Positions 1-27,475 of a stretch of DNA of 27,475 bases are shown here, in pieces. The position numbers were made by a program, and so were the translations under genes. Within the stretch, counting starts at the first letter, position 1. The number at the start of each line of letters is the position of its first letter. The notes under the pieces are model-generated. The model did no database searches. It worked only from the letters and a program-made list of their open reading frames with translations, and was not told the origin of the DNA. The stretch comes from an uncultured Deinococcales bacterium (GTDB lineage: Bacteria > Deinococcota > Deinococci > Deinococcales > JAAFIG01), in assembly GCA_964247135.1 (NCBI GenBank), contig CAXTTL010000034.1, positions 1 to 27,475 on the forward strand, written 5' to 3'.

Positions 1-213
1 GGCACTCGAGGTGCGCCCGATCAATTGACTTGGTTTGCACGGGTTCAAGCTCGAGATTTTCTCTTCTGTCGTGATGCGTTCACCGCCAATAATCAACGGG
101 TAATCCCGTCCGAGCATCGAACGGACTTTCTCGAGGGCGGCTTCGTAAGCGGCACGGTGGGCGGGTTGGGCGTAATCGGTGTAATTTTCTGGGGCGTAGG
201 TTGGTAAGTTCAT
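1..213 (-). CDS. pruA: L-glutamate gamma-semialdehyde (P5C) dehydrogenase, N-terminal part; runs off the left edge
   Basis: Not in the ORF track. Manual translation from ATG 213 gives MNLPTYAPENYTDYAQPAHRAAYEAALEKVRSMLGRDYPLIIGGERITTEEKISSLNPCKPSQLIGRTSSA, matching the P5CDH/RocA N-terminus (G.YPL.IGGE...S.NP..P). AGGAG RBS present; lies downstream of proline dehydrogenase. Confidence 0.9.
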   Translation of the reverse strand, partial: MNLPTYAPENYTDYAQPAHRAAYEAALEKVRSMLGRDYPLIIGGERITTEEKISSLNPCKPSQLIGRTSSA

Positions 214-220
214 GGTGCTC

Positions 221-520
221 CTATTGAGGCTCGAGGCGATCAATCCAATAAAATGGATCGCGTTTGTGGTGCGCGATGGCAAGGATCAGTAACTCTTGAT
301 TTTGCACCAAGCAAATCAAATGATATGGAAAGCGTTTCAAGCTGCGTTTGCGTATCGCGCCTACACCCGTTAAGGCGGCAGCCTCTGGGAACAGTTTGGT
401 ATCTTCTATGGCTTGACTGAGTGCTCGCTCAAAGAGCAACGTGCTTCCCATTTCGATTGTGTAATACCGTTCAGCTTCAGTGAGGTCATCAATCGCACCC
501 TCAAAAAAGACATCATTCAA
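221..520 (-). CDS. Type II toxin, RelE/ParE family
   Basis: About 99 aa from a probable TTG at 520 overlapping the antitoxin stop. Has the A..DL.EA..YY...R...L.RFPY.L......LILAIAH.KR.P.YW pattern of ParE-like addiction toxins. Confidence 0.8.
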   Translation of the reverse strand: MNDVFFEGAIDDLTEAERYYTIEMGSTLLFERALSQAIEDTKLFPEAAALTGVGAIRKRSLKRFPYHLICLVQNQELLILAIAHHKRDPFYWIDRLEPQ

Positions 521-734
521 CGGCTTTTCGAGCACGAGCAAATGCCTCCTCACGCGAATAAGCTTTCATTTCGCCTGATTCGTAAGCTTTCAAACGACGC
601 TCGATTTCAATTTTCCAGGCATCGCTTAACTCAATCGTATCGTCGCTGAATTCTTGCTCGAGAACGGCAAGAACCAGATCGCGTTCTTCGGGTTTAAGTT
701 CCCGTACTTTTTCAAGAACTTCTGCAACACTCAT
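513..734 (-). CDS. Addiction module antitoxin (TIGR02574-like)
   Basis: 73 aa acidic protein with L.PEER..L...AW..EIERRL..YESG....S.EE motif, directly upstream of and overlapping the toxin. Confidence 0.8.
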   Translation of the reverse strand: MSVAEVLEKVRELKPEERDLVLAVLEQEFSDDTIELSDAWKIEIERRLKAYESGEMKAYSREEAFARARKAVE

Positions 735-780
735 GGCTCTATTTTGCTCCTTTTTGGCTCAGATTCAAGTCATTCATCTT

Positions 781-1704
781 CTATCCTTGAAACAAGCCGC
801 GCAGCACAAATGCAATGTTGGCTGGGCGCTCCGCAATCCGTCTCGAGAAGTACGCGTACCAATCCTTGCCGTAAGGAATGTACGCCCGAACGTTGAAGCC
901 CTCCTGCGCCAAGCTTTTTTGCAAATCGCGGCGGATGCCGTACAGCATTTGAAACTCAAATTGCTCGAGTGGGATTTTTGATTTTTCAACAAAAATCTTG
1001 ACGTCTTTGATGATGCCCTCGTCGTGCGTGGCAATGGCGGTGTGGTTGCCCAACTCGAGGTTGCGGTACACCAGACGGCGGTATTGGTGGTCCACCACGG
1101 CTTTTTCTGGATAGGCTTGGTCTTCAGGCTCGAGGTACGCACCTTTGACGATGCGAAGATTGGGTTTGAGGTCGCTGAGATTCTCGAGGTCTTTTTCGCT
1201 GCGGCGCAACATGGCTTGCAAGACCAGTCCAACGTTGTCAAACTCACCGCGCAAGGTGCGGAACACCTCGAGCGTTTTTTCGACCCTTGGGCTGTCTTCC
1301 ATGTCGATGCGCACGAATGCCCCGACTTTTTTGGCGAGGGTCAAAATCTTTTTGGCGTTCGCCAGCGCATGTTCTGGGTTGATGTCCAGCCCGAGTTGCG
1401 AGAGTTTGATGCTGGCGTATTTTGGGTAGGGTTTTGCCTCGAGCGCGTCAAAAATGCTTAAAATTTCGGCGGTAAAACCGTTCGCTTCAGCATCGGAGTT
1501 GACCATTTCGCCCAGCAAATCCAGAATGCCATGCACCTTGTCCTGCTCGAGTTTTTCAACGGCTGCCACAGCCTCAGGTAAACTTTCACCCGCCACGAAC
1601 CTCGAGACGGCGGCTTTGGCGCGGTCATGCACCAGGTTTTTGATGATGCTGTTGCCGGACACGCCAAGCACAGCCGAACGGTACAAACGGTCAAAATTCA
1701 TCAT
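781..1704 (-). CDS. putB: Monofunctional proline dehydrogenase (PRODH)
   Basis: RFVAGE, DLLGE, SIKLSQLGL, RIDMED, RIVKGAY, IATHD, FEFQMLYG and Y..RRIAERPAN motifs; AAGGAG RBS. Confidence 0.95.
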   Translation of the reverse strand: MMNFDRLYRSAVLGVSGNSIIKNLVHDRAKAAVSRFVAGESLPEAVAAVEKLEQDKVHGILDLLGEMVNSDAEANGFTAEILSIFDALEAKPYPKYASIKLSQLGLDINPEHALANAKKILTLAKKVGAFVRIDMEDSPRVEKTLEVFRTLRGEFDNVGLVLQAMLRRSEKDLENLSDLKPNLRIVKGAYLEPEDQAYPEKAVVDHQYRRLVYRNLELGNHTAIATHDEGIIKDVKIFVEKSKIPLEQFEFQMLYGIRRDLQKSLAQEGFNVRAYIPYGKDWYAYFSRRIAERPANIAFVLRGLFQG

Positions 1705-1715
1705 GGTCTTCTCCT

Positions 1716-2420
1716 TTAATCAATGTCCCATTGGTCGCGTTTGGTCTTCAGGGCGGTCTTGAGGTTTTCGACGGTCAACAAGCCAAAATCTCGCACGTGC
1801 GCCCTGGCGGTTTGTTCAGACAATTCGGCATTTTTGCTTTCGATGGCTGCCAGAATCTGATAATGACTCGAGCGGGTGATGGCGTCCTGCATGTATTTGG
1901 CGGTCAGTAATTTCACCCGAATGATGCTTTCGGCAAGTCCGCGCAAGACGACCACCAGGGTTGGATTTTGGCTGGCTTGGGCGATGGCGTTGTGAAATTC
2001 GAGATCGGCTTGAATCTGGGCGTTGTAATCGTTGGCGGGGCAATGCTCGAGTTTCTCGAGGGCATTTTTCATGGCGCGAATGTCATTTTCTGTGGCGTGG
2101 CTGGCGGCTTCACGCGCGGCAAGCCCGTCCAGCACTTCTCGCACGGCGTACACGTGTTCGACCTCGAGCGCATTCACGGCTCGGACTTTCGCGCCTTTGT
2201 TGGCTTCAATTTCGACCAGACCATCTTGCGCCAGGCGTTGCACCGCTTCGCGCACGGGGGTTCTCGAGACGCCCAAGCGTTTTGCCAGGGCAATTTCGGC
2301 GAGCCGCGATCCGCTGCCGAGTTTGCCCGATAAAATCTCGAGCTTGAGGTGATCGTAAACCTCGTGACGCACCAGGGTTGGACGGGCGAAAGTTCTATTT
2401 TTAGCCTCGAGCGCTGACAT
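1716..2420 (-). CDS. GntR (FadR/FCD) family regulator, probable proline utilisation regulator
   Basis: N-terminal wHTH (LAKRLGVSRTPVREA) and FCD domain (VREVLDGLAA...DLEFHNAI...H..IL.AI); first gene of the put operon. Confidence 0.92.
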   Translation of the reverse strand: MSALEAKNRTFARPTLVRHEVYDHLKLEILSGKLGSGSRLAEIALAKRLGVSRTPVREAVQRLAQDGLVEIEANKGAKVRAVNALEVEHVYAVREVLDGLAAREAASHATENDIRAMKNALEKLEHCPANDYNAQIQADLEFHNAIAQASQNPTLVVVLRGLAESIIRVKLLTAKYMQDAITRSSHYQILAAIESKNAELSEQTARAHVRDFGLLTVENLKTALKTKRDQWDID

Positions 2421-2436
2421 TGTATACAGTATACAA
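2420..2436 (-). promoter_or_regulatory. Probable GntR operator overlapping a leaderless -10 box
   Basis: Perfect inverted repeat TTGTATAC-A-GTATACAA. On the minus strand it reads TATACT-7 nt-ATG of the GntR gene. Confidence 0.75.
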
Positions 2437-2524
2437 GAATTTTGGAAAAATATCGAATCCCCGCTTACGATTTTGGGCAGAGCATTGGCAGCAACCCGAA
2501 ATTTTCAAAAAGCGTGTACGTGAC

Positions 2525-2545
2525 GGTGCGCAAGGCGCACCCTAC
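2525..2545 (-). repeat. GTAG-family REP-like palindrome
   Basis: Minus strand reads GTAG-GGTGCGC-CTT-GCGCACC, the tetranucleotide plus GC hairpin layout of GTAG REPs; intergenic; single copy in the window. Confidence 0.55.
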
Positions 2546-2593
2546 ATCATCAGGCTCGAGCTTGGAGAAAAGTTGGGATTCCTTTAAACACAC

Positions 2594-3409
2594 TCAACTC
2601 GAGCTTTGCGCATTGGTCAGTTCATCGTCTGGGGTCATGCCATCCCACAAGAACCTCGAGAACAGGGGTTCATTTTCCGCTGTGCGCGGCGTTCTGGCAA
2701 TTTTCAAGTGCGTGTCCAATTCTTGGCGTTTGTCAAAAACAAAACACGTGCCCTCGTAATCTTGGTCTGCATCGTCAACTTGGGCAAAATAATTGATGAT
2801 TCCACCCTCGAGCTGCATGATCTGAATTCCTTTTTCGGCAAGCCAGGCGCTGGTTTTCTCACAGCGAATGCCACCCGTGCAATACATCGAAATGGTTTTG
2901 TCTTGCCAATTCAAAAGATTGCTTTCGATAAACGCCGCGAAGTCCCTGAAATTGTCCACGCCAGGGTTGATCGCTCCCTTAAAATGCCCGAGCGTGTACT
3001 CGAAGGCATTGCGGTTATCGATCAAAACCACGTCGTCGCGTTTGATGAGGTCGCGCCACAGATGCGGCGAAACGTCCGTGCCGTGGTACTTGCTGGCATC
3101 GACACCCTCAATGCCCAGCGCCACAATTTCGGGCTTGAGGCGCACTTTTAATTTCTTAAAGACCTGATCGCGGCAGTGGGTGCGCTTGTACAGCAAGCTT
3201 TGAAATCTCGAGTCTTGTTCCAAACCATCCCGCACGATTTGTAAGGCATCACTCGAGCCGCAGAGCATTCCGTTGATGCCCTCAAACGCCACCAAAATAC
3301 TGCCCAGCACCCCAGCGCCAGCGCAGAGTGGCTCGAGTGTGGCAATCAGCGCTTCAGGGTTTTCGACGGGAACGAAACGGTAAAAGGCATCGTGGAACAA
3401 ATCAGACAC
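2594..3409 (-). CDS. trhO: tRNA uridine(34) hydroxylase TrhO (YceA/UPF0176 rhodanese family)
   Basis: FY.F, G.ILVA.EGING, D.RN..E...GHF.GA, YCTGGIRCEK, LEGGI..Y and FVFD.R motifs; TAGCAT-6 nt-GTG start. Confidence 0.9.
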   Translation of the reverse strand: MSDLFHDAFYRFVPVENPEALIATLEPLCAGAGVLGSILVAFEGINGMLCGSSDALQIVRDGLEQDSRFQSLLYKRTHCRDQVFKKLKVRLKPEIVALGIEGVDASKYHGTDVSPHLWRDLIKRDDVVLIDNRNAFEYTLGHFKGAINPGVDNFRDFAAFIESNLLNWQDKTISMYCTGGIRCEKTSAWLAEKGIQIMQLEGGIINYFAQVDDADQDYEGTCFVFDKRQELDTHLKIARTPRTAENEPLFSRFLWDGMTPDDELTNAQSSS

Positions 3410-3477
3410 GGTCTAATGCTACGACGGTCTGCAACAATTTTGAAGGGCTTTTGTAGGCTCGAGTATGCTTTGAGGAC

Positions 3478-3954
3478 ATGAGCGAATATTTTCAAACCAT
3501 TTCAGCATTGATCGAATACGAATTGTGGTGCAATGACCAAGCTATGAAATTCCTCGAGCAACTGACGCCGCAAGAACTCGAGCGCGACTTTGGTTTTGGG
3601 CTGCGAACGCTGCATCACACCATGTTTCATATCATCAACGTCATGCGAACCTGGAGTTTGCAAGTCAAACCCGAACTCGAGCGCGTTAAACCATTGCCGT
3701 ACAACCGAAATTTGAGCTTACAGGATATTAAACTGCTGCTCGAGGAAGTCGGTCAGGCGTGGTTGTTGGCGGCTCGAGCCTCGCACGATTTGGGTCTGCT
3801 CGAGCGTGACCGGCGCTTGCATCAGGTGTTTCATCTGGTCACGCACGGCACGCACCACCGGGGGCAATTGCTCAGCATGGCGACCATTTTGGGTTACGAC
3901 CAACCGTTTGAAGGCGGAGATTTTGGCGGTTGGTCAAAGACGATCCATGAATAA
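3478..3954 (+). CDS. DinB family protein
   Basis: Y..W.N N-terminus, TL..T..H and H...H.THHRGQ metal-binding motifs. Confidence 0.85.
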   Translation: MSEYFQTISALIEYELWCNDQAMKFLEQLTPQELERDFGFGLRTLHHTMFHIINVMRTWSLQVKPELERVKPLPYNRNLSLQDIKLLLEEVGQAWLLAARASHDLGLLERDRRLHQVFHLVTHGTHHRGQLLSMATILGYDQPFEGGDFGGWSKTIHE

Positions 3955-3982
3955 AAAAACACCAAGGCTGATACCATAAGCA

Positions 3983-4855
3983 ATGCGCACTTTTTTAATC
4001 TCGAGTTTGCTGATTTTTCTTCTGTTCAACGCGCAAGCCTCGGTCTTGCAACTCGAGAATGGCACGCTCGAGAAAACCTTGGCTTGGGGCGCTTACACGA
4101 TCAAAATCACGCACTATCAAAACGAAAAACTGGCGGATGTTGCCCAAATTCGTGCGTCAAACGGGCGTGTCTTGCGCGAGGTTCGAGGTGTTGGAATTTA
4201 TGCCTCGAGTGAATCTCAAGCGTTGCTCGAGGATTTCACGGGCGACGGCGTTCCAGAGTTGCGCCTGATGGCATGGTCTGGCGGCGCGTACTGTTGCTAC
4301 ACCGATGTCGTTTTCAGCCGCGCTCGAGGTTTAAAAAACATCTTGATCGTTGCCGGAAACGAATTTCACCTCACCAAAGGCGTAAACATTTTGAATAAAC
4401 CCGCCAGGGATTTAAACCGTGACGGGCGCCTAGAATTAATCCTCGAGAATGATGCGATCAGTCATTTGAACGGTTCGACCCACGGTGCCACTTCGGTGTT
4501 GGTGTTGCAATGGAATGGCTTTAGGTACGTCGATGTCACCCGCAAATTTCCGCAAATTGGGCAAACTCGAGCCTTACAGTTCAAACAGCAAATCTTAACC
4601 CGAGCTTGTGATTCGGATTGGTCGCTCGAGTGTCTCGATTTGTCAACTGGTTTTTACGCCAATTCGGTCTTGGCAGGGAACGAGCGCACGGCTCGAGTCT
4701 GGTTGATGAATCACGGTGCAAAGAATTGGGTTTTGAGCAAAAGTTTGCTGGTCAAACGGGCGTTACAGACCACGAAATGCCGCGTTGGTTTCAGTCGGCA
4801 ACGCTTGATTTACATTTCAATCAGCCAAACTCGAGTCAGCAATTCAGGATGTTGA
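3983..4855 (+). CDS. Secreted hypothetical protein with FG-GAP/VCBS-like Ca-binding motifs
   Basis: Signal peptide (MRTFLISSLLIFLLFNAQA); DFTGDGVPEL and DLNRDGRLEL loops; SGGAYCC motif. Confidence 0.7.
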   Translation: MRTFLISSLLIFLLFNAQASVLQLENGTLEKTLAWGAYTIKITHYQNEKLADVAQIRASNGRVLREVRGVGIYASSESQALLEDFTGDGVPELRLMAWSGGAYCCYTDVVFSRARGLKNILIVAGNEFHLTKGVNILNKPARDLNRDGRLELILENDAISHLNGSTHGATSVLVLQWNGFRYVDVTRKFPQIGQTRALQFKQQILTRACDSDWSLECLDLSTGFYANSVLAGNERTARVWLMNHGAKNWVLSKSLLVKRALQTTKCRVGFSRQRLIYISISQTRVSNSGC

Positions 4856-4887
4856 GTAAGCAACGATGACACTCAACATCCCGAATT
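4841..4887. terminator. Inverted repeat between convergent genes, probable terminator
   Basis: AATTC-A-GGATGTTGAGT ... ACTCAACATCC-C-GAATT, a stem of about 17 bp with one mismatch (G-U on the minus strand). Confidence 0.6.
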
Positions 4888-4894
4888 CAAAATC

Positions 4895-5935
4895 TTATTT
4901 CATGTTCAAACGCTTCATGGCTTCATCCACCTCGAGTTGCCAATCGGTGTTGGCAATGTATGGTTTAAAGCCGAGGGCATGGTTGATTTTCAGCATTGGA
5001 CCGTTGCTGTCGGCATTGCCCGTTCGGACTTGATTGATCTCGGGACGCTCCGCCAAGACTTTCTCGAGCATCGCGGCTTTGAGCCATTTGCCCAGACCCT
5101 TGCCACGGTAAACAGGGTTGACGCCCGTGCCCCACTGCCCGAGGATGTGCGGGCGGTTGGGTTGCCAACCCGTTTCGCTAAAGCCAGCGAAACGACCCGT
5201 GCTGCGTTCTTTGACCAGTGCCAGGCAACGTTGCCAACCGGCAGCTTTGCGTTGATTTTGCCATTGCAGTAATTTCTCCGGCGTGGTCTTTTCGTCGTTG
5301 ATCTCAAGTTCGCCGCGCGGCGCGGTGTTCATGACATCGAACAACGCACAGAATGCCTCAAGTTCGTGCTCTGGGTAATCTTCGGTGTAAAACAGCAACT
5401 CGAATTCGTCGCTGGGCGCATCGGCAATCCAAGATTGCAACATGGCGCGGTCGAGTTCCTCGAGCAGCACTCGGTTCATGTGGTTTTCGATGCCGCGTTT
5501 CGCCCCGATCTTTTCGGCAAATGCGGCGCCCGATGGAATGCGTTCGCTGGTGCCAAAAATCAGGGTGCTGCGATTTTCACGCTTTGCAACGCGTAAAACC
5601 TGCTCGAGTAACTTTTTGCCCAGTCCCATGCGCCGAAATTCGGGCAGCACTGAAATGTCCGAGCCGCACAGGTGGGTGTTCTCACCCTCGATTTCAAACC
5701 CCAGGTCGCCGTAGGCGACGGCGCGACCGTCTTGAAAATAGGCGAAGGATTCAACGTTCACAAACGTGGGTATGTTTTTCCAATCCGCCAAGCGTTCACT
5801 TAAAGGGATGGGCGGGTCTTCTGGAATGCGTTCAAGGCGTTCAGCATTGAAAAGGTTGTGCAGGGCTACCGCGTCTGCATCATTGAGGTTGCGTAAATCC
5901 AGCGTTCTAAACTCGAGTTGGGTCATGACAGGCAT
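4895..5935 (-). CDS. Tandem GNAT family N-acetyltransferase
   Basis: Two acetyl-CoA motifs (VLPEFRRMGLGKKL; TGVNPVYRGKGLGKWLK) and C-terminal T.NA..N.PML.IN..LGF. GGAGG RBS supports ATG 5935. Confidence 0.9.
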   Translation of the reverse strand: MPVMTQLEFRTLDLRNLNDADAVALHNLFNAERLERIPEDPPIPLSERLADWKNIPTFVNVESFAYFQDGRAVAYGDLGFEIEGENTHLCGSDISVLPEFRRMGLGKKLLEQVLRVAKRENRSTLIFGTSERIPSGAAFAEKIGAKRGIENHMNRVLLEELDRAMLQSWIADAPSDEFELLFYTEDYPEHELEAFCALFDVMNTAPRGELEINDEKTTPEKLLQWQNQRKAAGWQRCLALVKERSTGRFAGFSETGWQPNRPHILGQWGTGVNPVYRGKGLGKWLKAAMLEKVLAERPEINQVRTGNADSNGPMLKINHALGFKPYIANTDWQLEVDEAMKRLNMK

Positions 5936-6068
5936 AAAATCCTCCAAAGGTTTGGGAAAAGTGTAGGCTCGAGTTTGAAAATTTGCATCGGCATCTTGGC
6001 GTAGGCTCTTCGAGCAATCTTAACAAAACCTCGAGATGCCCTGCGCTTGACTGGCGTAATCTGTGGGA

Positions 6069-6761: not shown

Positions 6762-6767
6762 GTTGTC

Positions 6768-8582: not shown

Positions 8583-8601
8583 AACCAGTACACTGCTGCT
8601 C

Positions 8602-8913: not shown

Positions 8914-8946
8914 AAAACAAAGAGCCACACGTGTATAGAAATAAAA

Positions 8947-9028
8947 CTCCCTTCTCCCGCCGTGCGGGAGAAGGCGACCCAAGCCCGTCAGGTGCTGCTG
9001 TAAGGGTCAAGGCGGTTGGGGATGAGGG
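8947..9028. repeat. CCCTTCTCCC/GGGAGAAGG...GGGGATGAGGG-type intergenic palindromic repeat with an internal insertion; probable terminator
   Basis: Perfect 11-bp stem CCTTCTCCCGC-CGT-GCGGGAGAAGG (8950-8974) and tail GGTTGGGGATGAGGG (9014-9028) between convergent genes. Confidence 0.6.
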
Positions 9029-9036
9029 TGGGGCTT

Positions 9037-9492: not shown

Positions 9493-9936
9493 TTAAGGGC
9501 GCATTGCTGACCACACCATGACCGTGGCAATCACGGCTTTGGTACTCCAGGCAACGGTGCGAATCCAGTTCGAGTTGACCAGCGTTCGGTAGGCTTTTTC
9601 ATCAAAGCCGCTCGAGAGAATGGCGTGTTGCGGAACTTGCAAAAAAGCGGTCGAAAGCCAGATCACCGCCAGCAGCACGGCGTTCAACCAATTCAAACTC
9701 GAGGGAACACTGGTGGGCGGCGCGAAGAAAATCATGACCGTCAAAACAAGCTCGAGCAGCATGGCGGGCATGACCACAACCGCAATCAGATTGGTGTGCG
9801 CCGCCTCGTAAGCCGCAAAGTTCTGGCGTCCGACCATGTTAAACAGCGGATAGTGCAAGATTTGAACAATCCAGATCACGCCCGTCATGAACACGGTTGA
9901 AAGCAGGTGCAGCAAGGTCAGGATTCTCGAGTCCAC
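9493..9936 (-). CDS. Conserved-type 4-TM membrane protein of unknown function
   Basis: MTG.IW.VQ..HYPLF ... VP.H..L ... NWIRT..W pattern; four hydrophobic segments. Confidence 0.8.
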   Translation of the reverse strand: MDSRILTLLHLLSTVFMTGVIWIVQILHYPLFNMVGRQNFAAYEAAHTNLIAVVVMPAMLLELVLTVMIFFAPPTSVPSSLNWLNAVLLAVIWLSTAFLQVPQHAILSSGFDEKAYRTLVNSNWIRTVAWSTKAVIATVMVWSAMRP

Positions 9937-12245: not shown

Positions 12246-13517
12246 ATGAAGCATACCAAAATAGCCTTTGCGGTGACCCTGGTCACGGCAAGCCTCGCCA
12301 CACTCGCCCTGGCACAATCCACCAAAACCATCAATGTTTTCGGTGCATTCGGTGGCGCTGAAGCCCAAAAGTTTCAAGAGGTGATCAATGTCTTTGAAGC
12401 CAAAAACCCGGGCGTCAAAGTCAATTACAGCACAAGCGCCGATTTCAACACGGTTTTGAACGTGCGCGTTCAGAGCGGTGACTACCCAGACATCGCCGGC
12501 ATTCCACAACCAGGCGTCATGAAAGACCTTGCCGCCAAAGGCGCACTTGCCCCAGTTTCGGGCACAACCTCGAGCCTGATCCGCAAGAACTACGCACCCG
12601 CCTGGGCAGATTTGGGCAAAGCCGACGACAAGAAAATTTACGGCGTGTTCCACCGCGTCAACGTCAAAGGTTTGATTTTTTACAACAAAGCTGCCTTTGA
12701 AGGCGCTGGTTACAAAGTCCCCAAGACTTGGGTCGAACTCCAAGCTTTGACCAAATCGATGGAAAGCTCGAATGCTGCGCCTTGGTGCGTCGGTATGGAA
12801 TCGGGCGGCGCCACCGGTTGGGTCGCCACAGACTGGCTCGAGAACATCATGCTCCGCACCCAGACCACCAAAATTTACGACCAATGGATCAGCGGTGCAG
12901 TTCATTTCAATTCCGAACCCGTTAAAAATGCGTTTAAAGTCTTGGACAGCATTTGGGGCAATCCAAAAGCCGTCTACGGCGGTAAAGGTTCAATCGCCGC
13001 AACCAGCTTCCTGGATTCGGCAAAAGGCTTGTTCACCAAAACACCACAATGCTGGTTGCACATGCAGGGCAGCTTTGCCACAGATTTCTTGCAGGACGAA
13101 ATCAAAAAAGACCTCGACAACAAAGTTGGCGTGTTTGTTCTGCCAATGATCAACACCAAATTGCCTCAGACACTCGAGGTTGGCGGCGACCAATTTGTGA
13201 TGTTCAAAGGCAAGAACCGTCCAGAAGTCCAGAAGTTCATGAGCTTCTTGGCAACCGGCGCTTCGGCTGACGCCTGGTCAAAACTCGGCGGCGGTCTGTT
13301 CCCACACAAAGACCAAAACCTCGACGCCTACAAGAACAAGATCGAACGCAGCTTTGCCGAGATCATCCTGTCCGCCAAATCTGCTCGCTTTGACGCTTCG
13401 GACGCTATGCCATCGGCTGTCAACCAAGCCTTCTGGAAGGGCACAACCGATTGGGTCACGGGCGGCGCCACACTTGACTCGGTGTTGAACGACATTGACG
13501 CCGCTTACAAGAAGTAA
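12246..13517 (+). CDS. Sugar ABC transporter substrate-binding protein, AglE-like (alpha-glucosides)
   Basis: Signal peptide; PD.A..PQPG, VK.L..YNK, PWC.G.ESG.ATGW..TDW.E...LR and RFD.SD.MP..V motifs; AAGGAGG RBS before ATG 12246. Confidence 0.9.
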   Translation: MKHTKIAFAVTLVTASLATLALAQSTKTINVFGAFGGAEAQKFQEVINVFEAKNPGVKVNYSTSADFNTVLNVRVQSGDYPDIAGIPQPGVMKDLAAKGALAPVSGTTSSLIRKNYAPAWADLGKADDKKIYGVFHRVNVKGLIFYNKAAFEGAGYKVPKTWVELQALTKSMESSNAAPWCVGMESGGATGWVATDWLENIMLRTQTTKIYDQWISGAVHFNSEPVKNAFKVLDSIWGNPKAVYGGKGSIAATSFLDSAKGLFTKTPQCWLHMQGSFATDFLQDEIKKDLDNKVGVFVLPMINTKLPQTLEVGGDQFVMFKGKNRPEVQKFMSFLATGASADAWSKLGGGLFPHKDQNLDAYKNKIERSFAEIILSAKSARFDASDAMPSAVNQAFWKGTTDWVTGGATLDSVLNDIDAAYKK

Positions 13518-18702: not shown

Positions 18703-18710
18703 GTGCGGTG

Positions 18711-19628: not shown

Positions 19629-19639
19629 GTTCGCCCCTT

Positions 19640-20728
19640 TCATGAATCCCGCGTCAGCCTGCGCTGCAAGAAGTTGATGCCCAGAATGATCAAGAAAAAC
19701 ACCACCGAAATGGTCGAGGCATACGCCAGGTCTTGTTCGCGGAAACCCTTGCGGATCATGTGGAAGGCAACCGTGCTGGTGGCATCGTCGGGACCGCCGT
19801 TGGTCATGACAAACACCTGGGTGAACAATTGAAACGCGGCAATCGTGATGGTGATAAAAATAAAGATGCTCGTGTTGCGCAAACTTGGAATCGTGATGAA
19901 CCTAAACTTTGCCCAGGTGCTCGCGCCGTCGATGCTGGCGGCTTCATAGAGTTGCTCGGGGATTCCCTGTAAGCCAGCCAGGAACAAAATCATTTGAAAA
20001 CCAGCGCCCTGCCAAACCGACATGATGATGATCGCCCACATGGCGACGTTGGGGTTGCCCAACCAGTCCACGGGAGGGACTGCAAAATTTGCCAGGAATT
20101 GGTTAATCATGCCGTGGTGCAGGTCATAAAGAAAACGCCAGACGATTGACACCACAACCATAGAGGTGACGACCGGACTGAAATAAATGGTGCGAAAAAA
20201 GTTGCGCCCCGCCAGCTTTTGATTGACCAGCAACGCCAGCATCAGCCCAATAAAGGACTGCAACGGAATCACGACAATGCTAAAAAAAATATTGTTGCCC
20301 AAGGACTTCATAAACACCGGATCGCCCGCCAAAATGACCAGGCGCTTGCTGCCCCAGGGCAGAAAAAACCATTCGCGCAACCCCGAATACTGCGGGTACT
20401 TGACCTCATCTCGGGTGAATTCCCGCGAGCGCGGATACTCGAGGTTGCCGTTTGGGTCTTTGGTCGGTTGTCCCGTTTTACTGTCCAATACAGGGTCTAA
20501 AGTCAAAAATGAAAGCCGCAGCAGCCTGGTGTAATTGCGCAAGCCGACAAAATCGGTTGGGTTTGCCGAAATCAGGCGTTGGTTGGTGAAACTGTACGAG
20601 ACGCCAGCCACAAAAGGTCCGATCAAAAAGACCAGCAATAACAAAAACGCTGGACCACCGAGCAAAATGGCGGGCACGAGATCAGGACTCGAGCGACGAT
20701 AATTGTTTTGACCTGTTGCGGTTATGAT
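19640..20728 (-). CDS. Sugar ABC transporter permease, MalF-like; start uncertain (ATC 20728 / ATA 20725 / GTG 20677)
   Basis: FVGL.NY, FRTIYF.P.V.S, W...GF.M...LAGLQ.IP..LYEAA.IDGA and T.GGP motifs. The frame is open up to a TGA at 20738-40. Confidence 0.9.
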   Translation of the reverse strand: MITATGQNNYRRSSPDLVPAILLGGPAFLLLLVFLIGPFVAGVSYSFTNQRLISANPTDFVGLRNYTRLLRLSFLTLDPVLDSKTGQPTKDPNGNLEYPRSREFTRDEVKYPQYSGLREWFFLPWGSKRLVILAGDPVFMKSLGNNIFFSIVVIPLQSFIGLMLALLVNQKLAGRNFFRTIYFSPVVTSMVVVSIVWRFLYDLHHGMINQFLANFAVPPVDWLGNPNVAMWAIIIMSVWQGAGFQMILFLAGLQGIPEQLYEAASIDGASTWAKFRFITIPSLRNTSIFIFITITIAAFQLFTQVFVMTNGGPDDATSTVAFHMIRKGFREQDLAYASTISVVFFLIILGINFLQRRLTRDS

Positions 20729-20779
20729 GGTCTCACCTCACTTTGGTTTGTTCTCAATTTATCGAATCTGTTTTTGTTT

Positions 20780-20805
20780 GAGAGGGACAAAGCACTGCCC
20801 CTCTC
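20780..20805 (-). other. Intercistronic hairpin after SBP gene (probable mRNA stabiliser)
   Basis: Minus strand GAGAGGGGCA-GTGCTT-TGTCCCTCTC, 10-bp stem, no U tract. Confidence 0.6.
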
Positions 20806-20872
20806 GAGCTTAAACGGTTTTCTCGAGGGTTATTTCAAATGCTCGAGAACGTTGATTTGCGACATGACAAGC

Positions 20873-22138
20873 TTACTTGTAACCTTTGTTGTCCTTGATG
20901 TTCTGGTTGATCGCATCCACGGCATCGTCAAGGGCATTTTGCACGTCACCGCCGTCACGAATCTTGACGCCAGCTTTTTCAAATTGGCTCGAGATGACCA
21001 GGTAGGCTGGGGTGGCTGGGCGTTGCACCGCAAGTTTGAGCATGTCAAAGTAGGTGCGGTATTTGCCTTTTGTGCTGTAATCATCAGTTAGTTTTGCACC
21101 GGCTCGGGTGCTGGGGATCAAACCGGTGGCGTTCGAGAACAATGCCACTTGCGGTCCTTGCATCACATAATTCAGGAATTGTCCTGCGCCAGCCGCGTCT
21201 TTGCAGGTTTTGCTGATGCCCCACTGCCACGATGCGCCGCCGATTTTGGGTCCTTTGCCAAAGTCCACCGTGGGCAGGAACAGGGCGTCGCTGCCGAACT
21301 TTTTCACCACGTCGTTGGCAGCCCAGCTTCCGGTGTACCAGAGCGGAATATGACCCTGCAAAAAGCCCTGGTCGTCGGCTGGGGTTGGGTTGACGTACTT
21401 TTGGCTGAACAGGCTTTGAAACCATTTGCCCCAAGCCACGCCCGCCGCACCATTGAGCACATTGCTGGCGGTTTGGAGGCTCGAGCGGTCAATCAAATCG
21501 CCACCGAAGCTTTGCAGCATTGGCGAGTAGGCGTATGGCCACCATTCGCCGCCGTAACCTGGGTTGACATCGAATGGATATTCAAAATCATTACTGGCTT
21601 TGAGGGTTTTTAAGATGCCGTTGAATTCCTCGAGTTTCCAGGGTTTGGACAGGGTTGGGACGCGGATTTTGTATTTACTCAGAATCGATTTGCGGGCAAA
21701 AATCTGCAAAACCACATCGAATTGACCCACGGAATACACCTTGCCATTGAAACGACCCACGTCGGCTGGGCTGATGCTCGAGATGAGTGACGCTGGCAGC
21801 GGCAGGGGTTGCAAATAGCCAGACCAGGCAAAGTTGGGGACGGTTGGACCGTCCATGTCGATGATGCAAGGCAAGCTGCCAGCCACCGAGGCGGCGGCGA
21901 CAGAATCGTTGTAGGAGGCTTGCGGGAAGGCTTCGATGGCAACTTCGTATTTGCCTTGTTTGGCGTTGAAGGCATCGACCATTTTTTGCACCGCGCCGAT
22001 TTCGGTGGGGTTGCCCGCCGAGTGGCTCCAAAGGCTGATTTTGGTTTTTTGTTGGGCGAATGCGCCCGTGGTCAGCAAAACGGCAAGCGATGTGGTCAAC
22101 CCCAAGGTCAGGGCAACGATTTTCTGTGTTTTGTTCAT
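20873..22138 (-). CDS. Sugar ABC transporter substrate-binding protein (fructo-oligosaccharide candidate)
   Basis: Signal peptide ending AFA-Q; LP..ID.DGP.VPN.AW.GYL, EW..YA.SP.LQSFGGDL and RP.TP.Y motifs; GGAGG RBS fits ATG 22138. Confidence 0.9.
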   Translation of the reverse strand: MNKTQKIVALTLGLTTSLAVLLTTGAFAQQKTKISLWSHSAGNPTEIGAVQKMVDAFNAKQGKYEVAIEAFPQASYNDSVAAASVAGSLPCIIDMDGPTVPNFAWSGYLQPLPLPASLISSISPADVGRFNGKVYSVGQFDVVLQIFARKSILSKYKIRVPTLSKPWKLEEFNGILKTLKASNDFEYPFDVNPGYGGEWWPYAYSPMLQSFGGDLIDRSSLQTASNVLNGAAGVAWGKWFQSLFSQKYVNPTPADDQGFLQGHIPLWYTGSWAANDVVKKFGSDALFLPTVDFGKGPKIGGASWQWGISKTCKDAAGAGQFLNYVMQGPQVALFSNATGLIPSTRAGAKLTDDYSTKGKYRTYFDMLKLAVQRPATPAYLVISSQFEKAGVKIRDGGDVQNALDDAVDAINQNIKDNKGYK

Positions 22139-22238
22139 GTTCATTCCTCCAGATAGGGCTTTTTTTTTGATACAAACTTGGGCAGATATCGAAATGTTAG
22201 GGCTAAATCACCTCCTCTCGGGCAAACTTCAATTTCAT

Positions 22239-22250
22239 TTATTCGTATAA
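22239..22250. promoter_or_regulatory. Probable LacI operator of the GH32 operon
   Basis: TTATTCGTATAA quasi-palindrome with central CG; the same motif occurs twice upstream of the regulator gene. Confidence 0.7.
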
Positions 22251-22296
22251 GTAAATTGGTTTGAGTTTTCAATTTGAGTGGCACTTAAAATCCCGC

Positions 22297-23325
22297 CTAA
22301 ATCGAAGCCCGTTCGATCAACTTACAACGAATCTTGTGCTGAATTGGACCGGCTCGAGCCTTGCCCTCGCTCATCAAAATCAGTTGATTGACCGCCCAGG
22401 CGCCCATTTTGTAATGCGGCAATTCCATCGTCGTCAGCGGCGGATGTAGATGTGCAGCAATAATTTCTTGATTGTCAAAGCCAATCACCGCGACATCCTC
22501 TGGAACACGTAAATTTAATTTGTGCAAGGCATCGTAAGCACCCATCGCAACGCGGTCATTGAAACAAAACAATGCCGTTGGAGGTTTGGGCTGCGTCATC
22601 AAATGCAGTGCTCCACGGTAGCCGCCAGCCTGCTCTGAAAGATCACGGAAAATCAAATTCTGATCAAACCGAATTTTTGCCTCGAGCAACGCCTTTTTGT
22701 AACCCTCGAGCCGTCCTGTGGTGGCTGGAATCGGGTCGGAGTTGTTGATTAAACCAATACGGCGGTGTCCTTTTTGGATCAAAGCTCTGGTCGCGCTGTA
22801 ACCGCCATCAACTTCGTCAGGCACAACCGAAGGCAAGGACTGATCTTTGATAAAACAGTCGAGCAATACGGTCGGCACGTTGCTCAAGGCGGCAGGCAAC
22901 TCCACCGCGTGGTGGTACATGGTCGCGTAAATAATGCCCTCCACTTGACGCTCGAGCAGCATTTCGGTGGCGGTTTTTTCCAAATCGGCTTGGCGTTTGG
23001 TGTTGACCAGCAACAAAATTTTGCCATTCTTCCAAGCGGCATCCTGCGCCCCTTCAATGATTCTGCCCGCGTGTGGCGTGATCGCAATTTCATCGGTGAT
23101 AAAACCAATCGTGTCCGAGCGTTGCGAACGCAAACTTTGGGCAAAAGCATTTCGCCTATAACCGAGTTTCTCAATCGCTTTGCGCACCCGAATTTTGGTT
23201 TCCTCGAGAATCGTGACGTTGGGCGTGTTGTTGATCACATATGAAACCGTCGGCTGGGAAACTCCGGCTAACTTTGCCACATCGCTCATGGTCGGCGCAC
23301 GTTTTGGTTTTGCTTCTTGAGCCAT
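22297..23325 (-). CDS. LacI family transcriptional regulator
   Basis: TMSDVAKLAGVSQPTVSYVIN HTH; FCFNDRVA.GA, VPEDVAVIGFDN and P.LTT motifs. Confidence 0.95.
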   Translation of the reverse strand: MAQEAKPKRAPTMSDVAKLAGVSQPTVSYVINNTPNVTILEETKIRVRKAIEKLGYRRNAFAQSLRSQRSDTIGFITDEIAITPHAGRIIEGAQDAAWKNGKILLLVNTKRQADLEKTATEMLLERQVEGIIYATMYHHAVELPAALSNVPTVLLDCFIKDQSLPSVVPDEVDGGYSATRALIQKGHRRIGLINNSDPIPATTGRLEGYKKALLEAKIRFDQNLIFRDLSEQAGGYRGALHLMTQPKPPTALFCFNDRVAMGAYDALHKLNLRVPEDVAVIGFDNQEIIAAHLHPPLTTMELPHYKMGAWAVNQLILMSEGKARAGPIQHKIRCKLIERASI

Positions 23326-24626: not shown

Positions 24627-24643
24627 CTCATGTACGATGGGTC

Positions 24644-26017
24644 ATGAATTCAATTCAGGATTTCTCGAGTTTCTCCGATTTAAGAACCCAAATCCTCGAG
24701 CGCATGAAGGCATTTCGAGTGCCTGGGCTGGCACTTGGCATCATTCAAGGCGGGCAATGGTTCGCCGAGGGTTTTGGTGTCACCAGCATCAGTAACCCGC
24801 TTCCAGTCATCACCGACACGACCTTCCAGATTGGTTCGACCAGCAAAACCGTGACCGCCACCGTCATCATGATGCTGGCTGAGCAGGGCAAACTCGAGCT
24901 TGACGAAAAAGTCAAAACCTACCTGCCAAACCTCGAGTTAAAAGATTCAGATGTGGCGGCTCGGGTCACGGTACGGCATTTGCTGAACCACACATCGGGC
25001 TGGGCTGGGGATTTGTTTGTGAACACGGGCGACGGCGACGATGCGCTCGAGGTGTACGTGCACAAAATGCGCGACCTGCCGCAACTCACACCACTGGGCG
25101 AGGTTTGGCATTACAACAACGCGGCGTTCGGTTTGGCGGGGCGCGTGGTCGAGGTTGTGACTGGGAAAACCTTTGAATCCGTGGCAACGGAGCTGGTGCT
25201 CGAACCACTCGAGATGACGCACAGTTCGTACTTTCCGAGCGAGGCGATGCTCGAGCGGTTTGCGGTCGGGCATTTTGTCGATGAACACGATGTGGTGCAG
25301 GTTTCCAAACCTTGGGCGTTGGCGCGGAACACATCGAGCGTGGGGCGGATCAACTCGAGCGTGATCGACCAACTCAAATACGCGCAATTTCACTTGGGTG
25401 ATGGCACGGCAGCAAACGGCAAGAGGTTGCTCTCGAGCGAAGCCATGATCGAAATGCAGACGCCGACCGTGAACGGCGCAAACGGGGCAAAACATGCGGT
25501 CAGTTGGTTCGTGCACGATCTGGCGGGCACAAAATTGGTGCGGCACGGCGGCGCGACCAACGGGCAGATGTCGGAGTTTTACCTTGTGCCAGAACGAAAT
25601 TTTGCCTGGACGATTCTGACCAATTCCGAAAAGGGACGCGCCTTGAACAACGAGATGATTGGTTTTATCCACCATCACATTCTGGGGTTGCAAGAGTCCG
25701 AACCCGAGCATTTGACGCTGAACGCCGCAGCGCTCGAGCCATTTTTGGGTGCGTACCGCGACACCAACTTTGGCACGGTCATCGAATTCAAACTCGAGGG
25801 TGAAAGTTTGATCTTGCACGTGACCCCAGGTGATCGTTCTGGGGTGAGCAGCATTGTCACGCCGCCCCCGCCCGACGCCAAATGCACCTTCATTGCCGGT
25901 GAGCGCGTTTTGGTGCTCGACGGAGACAGCAAAGGCAACAAGCTCGAGTTTTTGCGCGACCCAAGCGGCGAGATACGCTATTTGCGTTCGGGTGGACGGT
26001 TGTATTTTCGGGTTTAA
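24644..26017 (+). CDS. Serine hydrolase, beta-lactamase/AmpC-like family
   Basis: F.IGSTSK (SxxK), LL.HTSG, YNN (YxN) and HGG.T.G motifs plus C-terminal extension; no signal peptide. Confidence 0.9.
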   Translation: MNSIQDFSSFSDLRTQILERMKAFRVPGLALGIIQGGQWFAEGFGVTSISNPLPVITDTTFQIGSTSKTVTATVIMMLAEQGKLELDEKVKTYLPNLELKDSDVAARVTVRHLLNHTSGWAGDLFVNTGDGDDALEVYVHKMRDLPQLTPLGEVWHYNNAAFGLAGRVVEVVTGKTFESVATELVLEPLEMTHSSYFPSEAMLERFAVGHFVDEHDVVQVSKPWALARNTSSVGRINSSVIDQLKYAQFHLGDGTAANGKRLLSSEAMIEMQTPTVNGANGAKHAVSWFVHDLAGTKLVRHGGATNGQMSEFYLVPERNFAWTILTNSEKGRALNNEMIGFIHHHILGLQESEPEHLTLNAAALEPFLGAYRDTNFGTVIEFKLEGESLILHVTPGDRSGVSSIVTPPPPDAKCTFIAGERVLVLDGDSKGNKLEFLRDPSGEIRYLRSGGRLYFRV

Positions 26018-26152
26018 GCCTCAACATCCAAACCTGCGGCGTTTAACGTACTACCAAATATGATGGGTCGTCTGGGTTCACAAAATCATCCTCGCCCAAC
26101 CAGGGCAGTCTCGAGCGCCACGCTCAAGACGGCGACGTATACTCGAAGCCAA

Positions 26153-26713
26153 GTGATGATCAACGATTTGGATTGTAGCGATTTGAGCAACGAGCTTTTG
26201 ATGCTCGAGGTGGCGGCGTGTTCCGAAGCCGCCCTGAAAGAATTGTACAAGCGTTTTTCCAAACAAATTTACAGCCTGGCACGGCGAATGCTGCGCGAGG
26301 AGAGTGCCGCCGAGGATGTCACTCAAGACGTGTTCGTGAAAATCTGGCAAAAAGCCCTGGATTACTCGAGCCTCAAGGGGGCGGTCAGCACTTGGGTCAT
26401 GACCATCGCGCACCACAGCAGCGTCGATGCGATCAGACGCCGCGCCACCCAAGAAACGGTGGTCCTCGAGGACGGTGAACTCGAGCGTTACCCGGTTGAG
26501 CACGATGACGACCGTTTGGAGAAAGTCACGGTGTCTCGGGCTTTAGAGAGCCTCGAGCCTGGCGAGCGCGGTTTGATCGAACTGGCGTATTTTGAAGGTT
26601 TATCGCACTCTCAACTTGCCACGCGCACCGGAATTCCGCTTGGCACGATCAAAACCCGTTTGCGTCTGGGGTTGCAAAAATTAAAAGCCGCGCTTGGAGA
26701 GTGGTCCGAATGA
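26153..26713 (+). CDS. ECF RNA polymerase sigma factor (SigK/RpoE-like); start could be 26060, 26153 or 26156
   Basis: Region 2 (AEDVTQDVFVKIW, W...IAH...D..R) and region 4 (LAYFEGLSHSQLA...GIPLGTIKTRLRLGL.KL); TATACT at 26138-43. Confidence 0.92.
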   Translation: MMINDLDCSDLSNELLMLEVAACSEAALKELYKRFSKQIYSLARRMLREESAAEDVTQDVFVKIWQKALDYSSLKGAVSTWVMTIAHHSSVDAIRRRATQETVVLEDGELERYPVEHDDDRLEKVTVSRALESLEPGERGLIELAYFEGLSHSQLATRTGIPLGTIKTRLRLGLQKLKAALGEWSE

Positions 26714-27475
26714 TAGCCCCGTTGCCCCCAAATGAAGTTTTCCGTCTTGCCGCCTTGGCGCGTTACAACGTGCTCGACACGCCACCCGAAGCCGTGTTCG
26801 ATCAGTTCGCCGGTCTGACCGCCGGACTGCTCAACGTGCCGATTGCGATGGTTGGTCTGATCGACTCCGAACGCCACTGGTTCAAGGCATCGGTCGGTGC
26901 AGATTTTCCGTACAACATGCGCGAGAACTCGTTTTGCCAGTACACGATTCTCGAGGACAAGGTGCTTTGCATTCCCGACACCCAACTCGATGATCGCGTC
27001 AACGATATTTTGCCTGTGACTTTGCTGGGCGTGCGCTTTTACGCTGGCGCACCAATAACGACACCGGACGGTTTCAACATCGGTACGGTCTGCGTGTTCG
27101 ATCATCAACCGCGCAGCCTCGAGCCTTCTGATCTGGAAACCTTGGCGCTGCTGGCAAAACGGGTGATGGAAGCTTTGAACGACCGCCTCGAGCATGGGGT
27201 CAGAACCGATTCTCGGGATGTGATTTTGGCGTCAATACTTGAGTCTTTGGGTTTGGAGTCGCTGCCGTTGTTTGGGCAAGCCATCAGTGAACCTGAAGAA
27301 GTTCTGGAAGATGCCGATGTGATCGCTCGAGTCTCACGAGCCGTAGCGCAAAAAAATCCATCTGCAAGTCTGGAAAATTTAGTTTTTGATCGCATCAAAA
27401 CCCTGCCCGCCAAACCCGCCCTGGCTCGGGTGGTGCATTACGATTCCAAAAGCTTTCTGGCTCACGCCATTGACA
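26710..27475 (+). CDS. GAF-domain protein with downstream anti-sigma-like segment; runs off the right edge
   Basis: Not in the ORF track. ATGA overlap with the sigma stop. Manual translation MIAPLPPNEVFRLAALARYNVLDTPPEAVFD...WFKA..G...SFC..TI...RFYAGAP..TPDG..IGTVCVFD..PR is a classic GAF; the frame stays open to the window end. Confidence 0.85.
   Translation, partial: MIAPLPPNEVFRLAALARYNVLDTPPEAVFDQFAGLTAGLLNVPIAMVGLIDSERHWFKASVGADFPYNMRENSFCQYTILEDKVLCIPDTQLDDRVNDILPVTLLGVRFYAGAPITTPDGFNIGTVCVFDHQPRSLEPSDLETLALLAKRVMEALNDRLEHGVRTDSRDVILASILESLGLESLPLFGQAISEPEEVLEDADVIARVSRAVAQKNPSASLENLVFDRIKTLPAKPALARVVHYDSKSFLAHAID

Follow-up and report, generated by a model that had tools for sequence, protein, structure and literature searches.

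Genome-wide excesses of one short word are known from several bacterial systems. The uptake sequences of the Pasteurellaceae (uptake signal sequences, USS) and Neisseriaceae (DNA uptake sequences, DUS) are non-palindromic words of 9-12 bp that occur approximately once per kb; an uptake bias in their favor has been demonstrated, and a molecular-drive model describes their accumulation. In Escherichia coli, very-short-patch repair by the Dcm and Vsr proteins is associated with a modest over-representation of CCWGG, under 2x. The highly iterated palindrome (HIP) of the cyanobacteria, HIP1 (GCGATCGC), has to our knowledge lacked an explanation for some thirty years, and work on it has been confined to one phylum. 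Recent work, in its accessible portions, links HIP1 to transformation and gene transfer. Here we describe another iterated palindrome, the hexamer CTCGAG, which is independent, far denser and open to comparison with HIP1. It was noticed in a stretch of 27,475 b from an uncultured member of the Deinococcales (contig CAXTTL010000034.1 of assembly GCA_964247135.1; our contig C34), the whole of which we term the window. The nearest named relatives of a protein encoded in the window come from a Deinococcales metagenome-assembled genome (MAG; 69% identity), Calidithermus roseus (55%) and a Deinococcota MAG, in agreement with the Deinococcota lineage proposed in the first-pass annotation of this DNA, which had been made from the letters alone.

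CTCGAG shares with HIP1 and the alternate HIPs the character of a single GC-rich, hyper-abundant palindrome that populates coding and non-coding DNA alike and is not explained by codons; it is likewise more conserved than control words and is a trait of a whole lineage. The analogy with HIP1 drawn in the first-pass annotation thus holds in terms of abundance, occurrence both within and between genes, and conservation. However, HIP1 is an 8-letter word of cyanobacteria, whereas CTCGAG is a different, 6-letter word of Deinococcota; HIP sites occur about once per 1,000 b according to the accessible text of Elhai 2015 (PMC4390886), as against about once per 150 b for CTCGAG; and for the latter no cognate methylase was found among the families compared below, nor are its one-letter variants enriched. 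The core of HIP1 itself, CGATCG, has just 47 copies (0.03x) in the genome of the window.

With the USS and DUS, CTCGAG has in common the genome-wide excess of one exact word, which within genes lies in tolerant frames and affects the encoded proteins, the under-representation of nearby copies, and the presence of competence genes (ComEC and DprA); it differs in being a 6-bp palindrome at 6.7 per kb rather than an oriented core of 9-12 bp at about one per kb. The Dcm/Vsr system illustrates that biased repair can make a methylated palindrome more frequent, but the CTCGAG effect is 25x, and neither a Vsr (in six genomes) nor a depletion of CTTGAG and CTCAAG was found. Restriction-modification (R-M) systems of the XhoI type, which pair a PF04555 nuclease with a PF01555 methylase, and orphan CTCGAG methylases concern the same word, and such R-M systems occur in the phylum; nevertheless, no PF04555 nuclease was found in the 19 genomes of the family to which the window belongs. 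In Nocardia, the motif of the orphan methylase clusters at the replication origin, as stated in the accessible part of Blow et al. 2016 (PMC4752239), whereas CTCGAG forms no clusters in the window's genome. The literature searched, which did not extend to supplementary motif tables, held no report of CTCGAG enrichment in Deinococcota, and the accessible text of Elhai 2015 (PMC4390886) contains CTCGAG 0 times.

Abundance of CTCGAG in the window and its genome

The window contains exactly 193 copies of CTCGAG, running from the one at 5-10 to that at 27326-27331, at a mean spacing of 142 b, which bears out the manual count of about 193 at one per ~140 bp. None of 100 dinucleotide-preserving shuffles of the window reaches this number (mean 4.53, maximum 14). 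The 18 words differing from it by one letter are indeed rare, as had been claimed, with 0-13 copies each (TTCGAG 12, GTCGAG 7, ATCGAG 3). Gene calls based on open reading frames (ORFs) assign 170 of the sites to coding and 23 to intergenic DNA; 11 of the 15 spacers of at least 30 bp carry one or more, in keeping with the earlier remark that most spacers do. All three frames are used (101 sites as CTC-GAG, 14 as xCT-CGA-Gxx and 55 as xxC-TCG-AGx), also within the single ORF 3983-4855 for which this had been pointed out, where five sites read as Leu-Glu, four run through the Arg codon CGA and two through the Ser codon TCG.

The enrichment is by no means confined to the window. In the assembly as a whole, G000 below (5,091,702 b in 386 contigs, 84% complete, 52.7% GC), CTCGAG is the commonest hexamer, with 33,925 copies, one per 150 b or 6.7 per kb. 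Base composition predicts 1,369 copies, so that the approximately 25-fold over-representation estimated from the window is matched by a value of 24.8x for the genome; the expectation is 963 under a first-order Markov model and 2,351 under a second-order one (14.4x). A fourth-order, that is maximum-order, Markov model expects 27,444 copies, an observed/expected ratio of just 1.24, but was rejected as a null because the sub-words on which it draws (GCTCGA, CTCGA and others) mostly consist of the motif itself. The 18 one-letter variants range from 96 to 2,216 copies (0.08-1.8x composition). Every one of the 386 contigs carries the word, with no fewer than 2.56 copies per kb, and each of 1,473 five-kb windows holds 8 or more.

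Simple ORF-based gene calls (4,658 genes, 88% of the genome) place 29,241 sites in coding DNA (6.54 per kb), 4,673 in intergenic DNA (7.55 per kb) and 11 across a gene end; the intergenic number is 35x that expected from the composition of the spacers. By frame, the coding sites number 18,223 as CTC-GAG, 4,327 as xCT-CGA-Gxx and 6,664 as xxC-TCG-AGx. Shuffling synonymous codons within genes, which keeps the proteins and per-gene codon counts (10 replicates), leads to an expectation of 4,058 copies as against 29,214 observed, an excess of 7.2x; in the three frames 3,153, 311 and 593 are expected, with excesses of 5.8x, 13.9x and 11.2x respectively. A shuffle of codon order expects 1,728 coding copies. 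A dicodon model is blind to the CTC-GAG frame because it keeps that dicodon by construction, but for the remaining two frames its expectations are 2,376 and 3,555 copies, leaving an excess of 1.8-1.9x that does not vanish; the full hexamer is completed in 94% of the xCT-CGA and 93% of the TCG-AGx dicodons. As the first-pass annotation had argued, codon or dipeptide bias is thus insufficient to account for the word, given its excess in spacers, over the synonymous shuffle and in both frames that the dicodon model can address.

The reversed word GAGCTC, the SacI site, is entirely absent from G000 (0 copies, about 1,369 expected) and from the window, and its extended form CGAGCTCG occurs 0-7 times per genome in 15 of the family's other 18 members. 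G000 is also almost devoid of several further palindromes, namely GGGCCC (1 copy), CGGCCG (3), AGGCCT (4), CGTACG (5) and GGATCC (7), and GGCC (0.016x) and CTAG (0.07x) are strongly depleted. This scarcity of palindromes beside one favored word suggests an intense and varied restriction pressure.

Anatomy and spacing of the sites

The letters flanking CTCGAG in G000 show a symmetric but weak bias of about 0.05-0.2 bit per position, with A at -3 (frequency 0.37 overall, 0.46 in spacers), G at -1 (0.39), C at +1 (0.38) and T at +3 (0.37 overall, 0.45 in spacers); part of the deficit of G at -3 arises because GAGCTC is totally absent. Neighboring sites interfere with each other within about 15-30 nt: pairs of sites occur at 0.14 of expectation at a distance of 7 b, 0.54 at 16 b and about 0.85 at 22-40 b, reaching 1.0 from 80 b onward. 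The same is seen when protein sequence is controlled for by comparing Leu-Glu dipeptides, where the fraction of pairs in which both are spelled CTCGAG is 0.26, 0.23 and 0.35 at gaps of 3, 4 and 5 codons and about 0.49 at 6-10 codons, as compared to the independence value of 0.59 at 30 codons or more. At a gap of 2 codons, where such a spelling would create GAGCTC, none of 193 pairs has both dipeptides written in this way.

Beyond short range the sites form a blanket. No clusters of the kind that an origin signal would form are present in G000, where no stretch of 500 b holds more than 12 sites. Density changes little along the length of genes, and at least one site lies in 1,916 of the 2,671 spacers, convergent spacers being somewhat richer (8.46 per kb) than divergent ones (6.79 per kb). 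Past the codon period, no periodicity, helical or other, was detected below 400 b. The spacing of HIP1 is periodic at 10-90 kb according to the accessible text of Xu, Lawrence and Durand 2018 (PMC5861425), and the median G000 contig, at 9.3 kb, is shorter than such kb-scale periods.

Consequences for codons and proteins

Of the 23,665 Leu-Glu pairs counted in the proteins of G000 (genes containing N were excluded from all protein-level counts), 18,221 (77%) are spelled CTC GAG, where independent codon use predicts 1,153; outside Leu-Glu, Leu is encoded by CTC in 15% of instances and Glu by GAG in 32%. The dipeptide itself is over-used, at 2.34x the expectation from amino acid composition, which therefore amounts to about 13,500 extra Leu-Glu pairs in the proteome, whereas the inverted Glu-Leu stands at 1.01x. 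A comparison of 107 reciprocal-best orthologue pairs between G000 and a Deinococcus-like genome, each with at least 35% identity and 70% coverage, comprises 35,296 dipeptide columns. In these, 131 Leu-Glu are shared, 436 are found in G000 alone and 110 in the outgroup alone; the corresponding unshared counts for Glu-Leu are 166 and 144. The other dipeptides that are strongly skewed relative to the outgroup contain Lys, Ile, Asn or Ser, in line with the difference in GC content, but Leu-Glu does not follow this pattern. The remaining eleven codon pairs for Leu-Glu mostly fall to 0.3-0.6 of expectation whatever their mutational distance from CTCGAG; those spared are CTT GAG (1.82), CTC GAA (1.19), CTT GAA (1.14) and CTA GAG (1.0), of which the transition neighbors CTT GAG and CTC GAA look like decay products of CTCGAG. 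We are confident that a force at the level of DNA overrides codon choice in G000 and alters its proteins, and this rewriting matters for the annotation, codon models and phylogenetics of such genomes.

Turnover among congeners

We compared G000 with five other genomes of its genus, which are 82-85% identical to it in syntenic DNA, over three 20-kb segments. At 1,041 of 1,357 aligned G000 sites (76.7%) the congener also has CTCGAG, as against 79,683 of 186,573 control hexamers that are identical (42.7%). In the window alone 392 of 561 sites are kept (controls 41%), and in its spacers 48 of 59 (controls 48%). All six genomes align at 26,079 positions, of which 248 have CTCGAG in at least one genome: 99 in all six, 64 in five, 17 in four, 15 in three, 26 in two and 27 in one. 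On a star tree the loss is about 0.097 per branch, and loss alone predicts 2.7 sites present in one to three genomes as against the 68 seen; from the singletons, the gain rate of CTCGAG is 3.0x that of the mean hexamer, a rough estimate in which rate heterogeneity is ignored. In all likelihood, the sites arise by ordinary mutation; compared with other hexamers, they are fixed about 3x more often, and their loss is slower by a factor of 1.7-4. The proposal in the first-pass annotation of an active process that creates and maintains the motif is in this respect upheld by both retention and gain; its version based on an XhoI-type methyltransferase and repair is not, as detailed below.

In the window, 13 of the 16 terminal losses that changed one letter are C>T or G>A. 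Where the six letters on either side are identical, 30 of 153 CTCGAG cases differ by three or more letters, as against 2,879 of 46,587 controls (6.2%; odds ratio 3.7). Two variable sites are listed in Table 1. At 13173 the word is present in G000 and one congener (G001), three others have TTAGAA and one CTGGAA; these states differ by three synonymous changes, and Leu-Glu is encoded in all six genomes. At 9611, CTCGAG in G000 and another congener (G004) stands against CCAGCC in three and CTAGCC in one, so that four letters differ and amino acids change between nearly identical flanks. We considered a one-step 'writing' of CTCGAG from such multi-letter changes but did not retain it, as stepwise change, or the reversion of forced amino acids once a site is lost, fits equally well. 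Likewise, an excess of parallel gain or homoplasy, striking by eye in the window, was set aside as control hexamers show it nearly as often.

Spread across Deinococcota, mobile DNA and phages

All 18 other genomes of the family, which span five genera, are enriched, with 838-4,448 copies of GCTCGAGC and 0-165 of its reversed word. Outside the family we use the labels Meiothermus-like, Thermus-like and Deinococcus-like, which rest on family grouping and named records. The Meiothermus-like genera g13-g15 (20 complete genomes of 2.4-3.9 Mb) have 3,336-12,522 CTCGAG and 278-2,187 GAGCTC, and the two genomes of genus g6 have 6,990 and 7,299 CTCGAG with 62 and 145 GAGCTC. In the Thermus-like genus g9 (27 genomes) the two words are comparable (1,455-2,803 and 1,113-2,680), and in the Deinococcus-like genus g7 (77 genomes) there are 26-1,010 CTCGAG per genome. 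Codon-aware checks on 400-kb samples place the Meiothermus-like enrichment at 3-12x above the null. G038 (g13; one contig, 63% GC) has 792, 67 and 77 sites in the three frames as against 258, 5.7 and 22 after the synonymous shuffle, and 57 in spacers where 11.9 are expected. By the same test the Deinococcus-like G028 (70% GC) is depleted, with 30 copies as against 99 after the shuffle and 1 in spacers as against 19 expected. This depletion is opposite in polarity to the state of the sister lineages.

Named records agree with this distribution: a contig of 11,850 b from a Calidithermus roseus isolate has 56 CTCGAG and 1 GAGCTC, and the first 50 kb of three further records have, respectively, 63 (3.7x composition) and 15 in Allomeiothermus silvanus pMESIL01, 45 and 55 in Thermus thermophilus pTT27, and 8 and 5 in Deinococcus radiodurans MP1. 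Among 75 loci from other phyla the median is 0.32x composition, with a maximum of 8.5x in a locus of 74% GC. Mapping the word across Deinococcota, as the first-pass annotation had recommended, thus yields a new picture: strong enrichment, about 25x, in the family of the window is accompanied by weaker enrichment in the Meiothermus-like genera, none in the Thermus-like genus and depletion in the Deinococcus-like one. The weaker form in cultured thermophiles of a transformable type, and in an isolated phage, makes experiments directly possible.

Mobile DNA carries the word too. The G000 contig C75, probably an integrative conjugative element or a plasmid, has about half the usual density (3.45 per kb); its conjugative-transfer genes at 9000-19420 (locus L501) specify a coupling protein like VirD4/TraG and an ATPase like TraC/VirB4. 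Another contig, C112, with 3.55 per kb, encodes a type IIG-like enzyme of 1,499 aa. The Meiothermus phage MMP17 (MH939157) has 87 CTCGAG in 33,172 b (7.8x composition), making it the second commonest hexamer of that genome, with 8 GAGCTC; its density of 2.6 per kb compares with 2.5 in the sampled Meiothermus-like genome. By contrast, the Thermus phage Riverbug, which is related to MMP17 (54% identity between their major head proteins), has 23 CTCGAG and 35 GAGCTC in 34,064 b. The two constitute a single host-switch comparison, as phage MMP7, with a head protein identical to that of MMP17, was not counted as independent. The Thermus phage P23-77 has 2 CTCGAG in 17,000 b. At 26062-27388 of MMP17 (L383), a gene for an adenine methylase of the D12 class, which shares 37% identity with the sole D12 methylase of G000 (contig C320), overlaps a small gene annotated as Vsr; the sole match of the latter is a weak one to DUF559 (17.8 bits, below cut-off). 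Viral contigs with three CTCGAG within 78 b were also considered, but those among the matches listed are mostly high in GC with GAGCTC equally common. Among the matches listed, three IMG/VR contigs (L298, L288 and L300; 67-69% GC) have 3.3-4.9 CTCGAG per kb and 0-2 GAGCTC; as phages or prophages, these may belong to enriched Deinococcota.

Methylases, nucleases, repair and competence genes

Since the state of the trait differs sharply between sister lineages, gene families can be compared between genomes with and without it. Absences reported here refer to assemblies that are 57-100% complete, and the specificity of a methylase is not readable from its sequence. Three public sequencing runs contain 5-7% of the words sampled, with no RNA run listed. 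The XhoI-family nuclease, found in 0 of the 19 family genomes, is present in 4 of 151 other genomes of the phylum, intact in G021, G084 and G139 and broken by stops in G104; the intact genes are convergent with an adjoining PF01555 methylase gene (in G021, C1:73699-77256, locus L492; the set includes L490, L491 and L493). The XhoI-linked methylase of G021 has homologues of 62-63% identity in G027 and G022, while its best match in G000 (on contig C189) is 25% identical. The small-genome Deinococcota with XhoI-type pairs do not avoid the word, having 1,424-6,713 sites, about 2x the reversed word.

G000 itself encodes two MmeI-type DNA methylases, one HsdM, one large type IIG-like enzyme, 4-5 members of PF01555, two C5 methylases and one of the D12 class. 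We compared PF01555, PF00145, PF02086 and PF07669 among 31 relatives (PF02384 in G000 alone), and no methylase group tracks CTCGAG. Searches for PF01555 drew a blank in G015 and in G011, the latter a family genome assembled as a single contig, and C5 methylases were not found in the enriched G008, G019, G027 and G030. The gamma-class PF07669 matches of about 500 aa are HsdM-like type I subunits shared by enriched and non-enriched genomes alike. A group of D12 methylases (group A) present in 8 enriched genomes was rejected as it is missing from G000 and G001; in the sample of 151 phylum genomes it is limited outside the family to genus g6 and does not occur in the 20 enriched g13-g15 genomes. 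As for repair, MutH was not found in G000, Vsr (PF03852) has no match in G000, G005, G011, G019, G027 or G030, and the deamination-product words CTTGAG and CTCAAG are not depleted in G000 (1.16-1.18x). DUF559, which has a Vsr-like fold, was tried as the trait gene and shows no correlation: G000 has 4 copies and G011 has 3, the non-enriched G028 has 5, and the enriched G019 has 0. The correlation with CTCGAG methyltransferases that the first-pass annotation had envisaged is therefore not borne out, and the link to an XhoI-type or other methylase is unsupported, because the nuclease was found in none of the 19 family genomes, Vsr and MutH were not found in the genomes searched, and no methylase group follows the trait.

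What drives the word

We hold with near certainty that CTCGAG is a highly iterated palindrome, that is a HIP-type genome word, of a Deinococcales clade, and we are equally assured that it reflects a directional force on DNA itself, which targets the exact hexamer and extends to all resident DNA, including the chromosome, a conjugative element and a phage of an enriched host. An origin in assembly, binning or library preparation, one of the refutations contemplated in the first-pass annotation, has a negligible chance of being correct: the word is found in all 386 contigs and in 18 of 18 other family genomes, it is enriched in the Calidithermus roseus isolate contig and the phage isolate record and mildly so in the Allomeiothermus silvanus plasmid, and its sites are in frame within conserved genes and come with neither insertions nor deletions. 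A by-product of translation, in the form of preferred codons, a favored Leu-Glu dipeptide or codon-pair bias, might be suspected from the CTC-GAG frame contributing 62% of coding sites and from the over-use of Leu-Glu, but is highly improbable, given that the strongest enrichment (35x) is non-coding, that the other frames stand 11-14x above the synonymous shuffle and 1.8-1.9x above the dicodon model, that CTC and GAG are minority codons outside CTCGAG, and that Glu-Leu is never spelled GAG CTC.

As to what the force might be, our tentative preference, which we place short of an even chance, is for a symmetric reader protein combined with preferential transmission during DNA exchange, by analogy with the USS and DUS and with what is now suspected for HIP1. 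A symmetric, probably dimeric host protein would read CTCGAG with a footprint reaching to -3 and +3 and would exclude a second useful site within about 15-30 nt; such a reader is suggested because the flanks are symmetric and neighboring sites interfere. DNA bearing CTCGAG would then be passed on preferentially in exchange between relatives, through an uptake- or recombination-biased molecular drive in which methylation of the word is possible but not required. Several observations weigh against this proposal. The short-range interference could reflect the avoidance of hairpins between nearby palindromes. CTCGAG is shorter and 7-10 times denser than the known uptake sequences. Although G000 encodes ComEC (155 bits) and DprA (236 bits), both also match in 10-11 of 14 control genomes and, being near-universal, carry little weight. 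Conflict with the genus tree affects 45 of 58 CTCGAG patterns (78%) and 72% of 26,678 control patterns (p = 0.38), so that there is no specific sign of horizontal spread. The host-level density in the phage is accounted for no less well by selection on the phage or by a process that acts at each replication, and no candidate for the reader was found among the candidate families compared.

A rather unlikely alternative is that the sites are dense binding sites for a nucleoid-structuring or self-marking protein, either an abundant chromosome protein or part of a system distinguishing resident from foreign DNA, each site conferring a small benefit, to which phages and mobile elements adapt. This would fit the cluster-free blanket along genes and across most spacers, the symmetric flanks and short-range interference, the retention above control hexamers and the host-like density of MMP17, and a nucleoid or chromosome role is favored for HIP1 in the accessible text of Xu et al. 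2018 (PMC5861425). However, it would require selection at each of 34,000 sites strong enough to replace amino acids, and the families compared yielded no candidate protein. The other alternative follows Elhai's model for HIPs, in which an orphan CTCGAG methyltransferase coupled to mismatch or very-short-patch repair favors the methylatable word, shielding existing sites and generating further ones. The co-occurrence of HIP1 and alternate HIPs with cognate methylases (accessible text of PMC4390886), the orphan CTCGAG methylase of Nocardia (accessible part of PMC4752239) and the methylation of CTCGAG in hot-spring metagenomes, with no host phylum stated in the accessible part of that preprint (bioRxiv 10.64898/2026.06.24.734251), lend it some plausibility, as do the predominance of C>T or G>A among terminal losses, the escape of CTT GAG and CTC GAA from codon-pair depletion and the adjacency of a D12 methylase to a weak Vsr/DUF559-like gene in MMP17. 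We nevertheless consider it improbable in view of the survey above: the XhoI nuclease was found in no family genome and G000 has just a 25% identical match to the linked methylase, PF01555 was not found in G011 or C5 methylases in four enriched genomes, D12 group A was found outside the family in g6 alone, the gamma-class matches are MmeI-type or HsdM-like, Vsr and MutH were not found in the genomes searched, and the deamination products are not depleted. Moreover, a repair bias at replication at most doubles the rate of gain.

Returning to the reader-based drive, a bolder form of it, which we offer as a speculation with the balance against it, would make CTCGAG a 'self' word through which a dimeric reader biases the uptake, recombination or retention of DNA, independently of any methylase, as a palindromic counterpart of the uptake sequences. 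If this is true, long-resident DNA such as chromosomes, conjugative elements and temperate phages would converge on a spacing of 100-150 b between sites even though thousands of amino acids change as a result, and the system would be the first of the HIP type outside the cyanobacteria with cultured hosts (Meiothermus, Allomeiothermus and Calidithermus) and a phage.

Features of the window

Table 1. CTCGAG-related features of the 27,475-b window
Feature	Position	Strand	Basis or remark
CTCGAG array, 193 exact sites	5..27331	.	exact count and shuffle control
ORF of 290 aa without Pfam match; 11 CTCGAG in all three frames	3983..4855	+	
Intergenic spacer of 195 b with 4 sites (20688, 20803, 20822, 20842); example of non-coding enrichment	20678..20872	.	
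Variable CTCGAG site inside a solute-binding-protein gene	13173..13178	+	congener alignment
Variable CTCGAG site	9611..9616	-	congener alignment
Close pair, two sites 9 b apart (2046, 2055)	2046..2060	.	such pairs under-represented genome-wide

Apart from the array, the window encodes at 10912-23325 two adjoining sugar-use clusters, each with a LacI-type regulator, an ABC solute-binding protein and two permeases, between which lie two genes for GH32 enzymes (fructan or sucrose hydrolases). Short intergenic repeats at 8913-9035 and 10840-10909 recur in many copies, 76-98% identical, throughout all six genomes of the genus.

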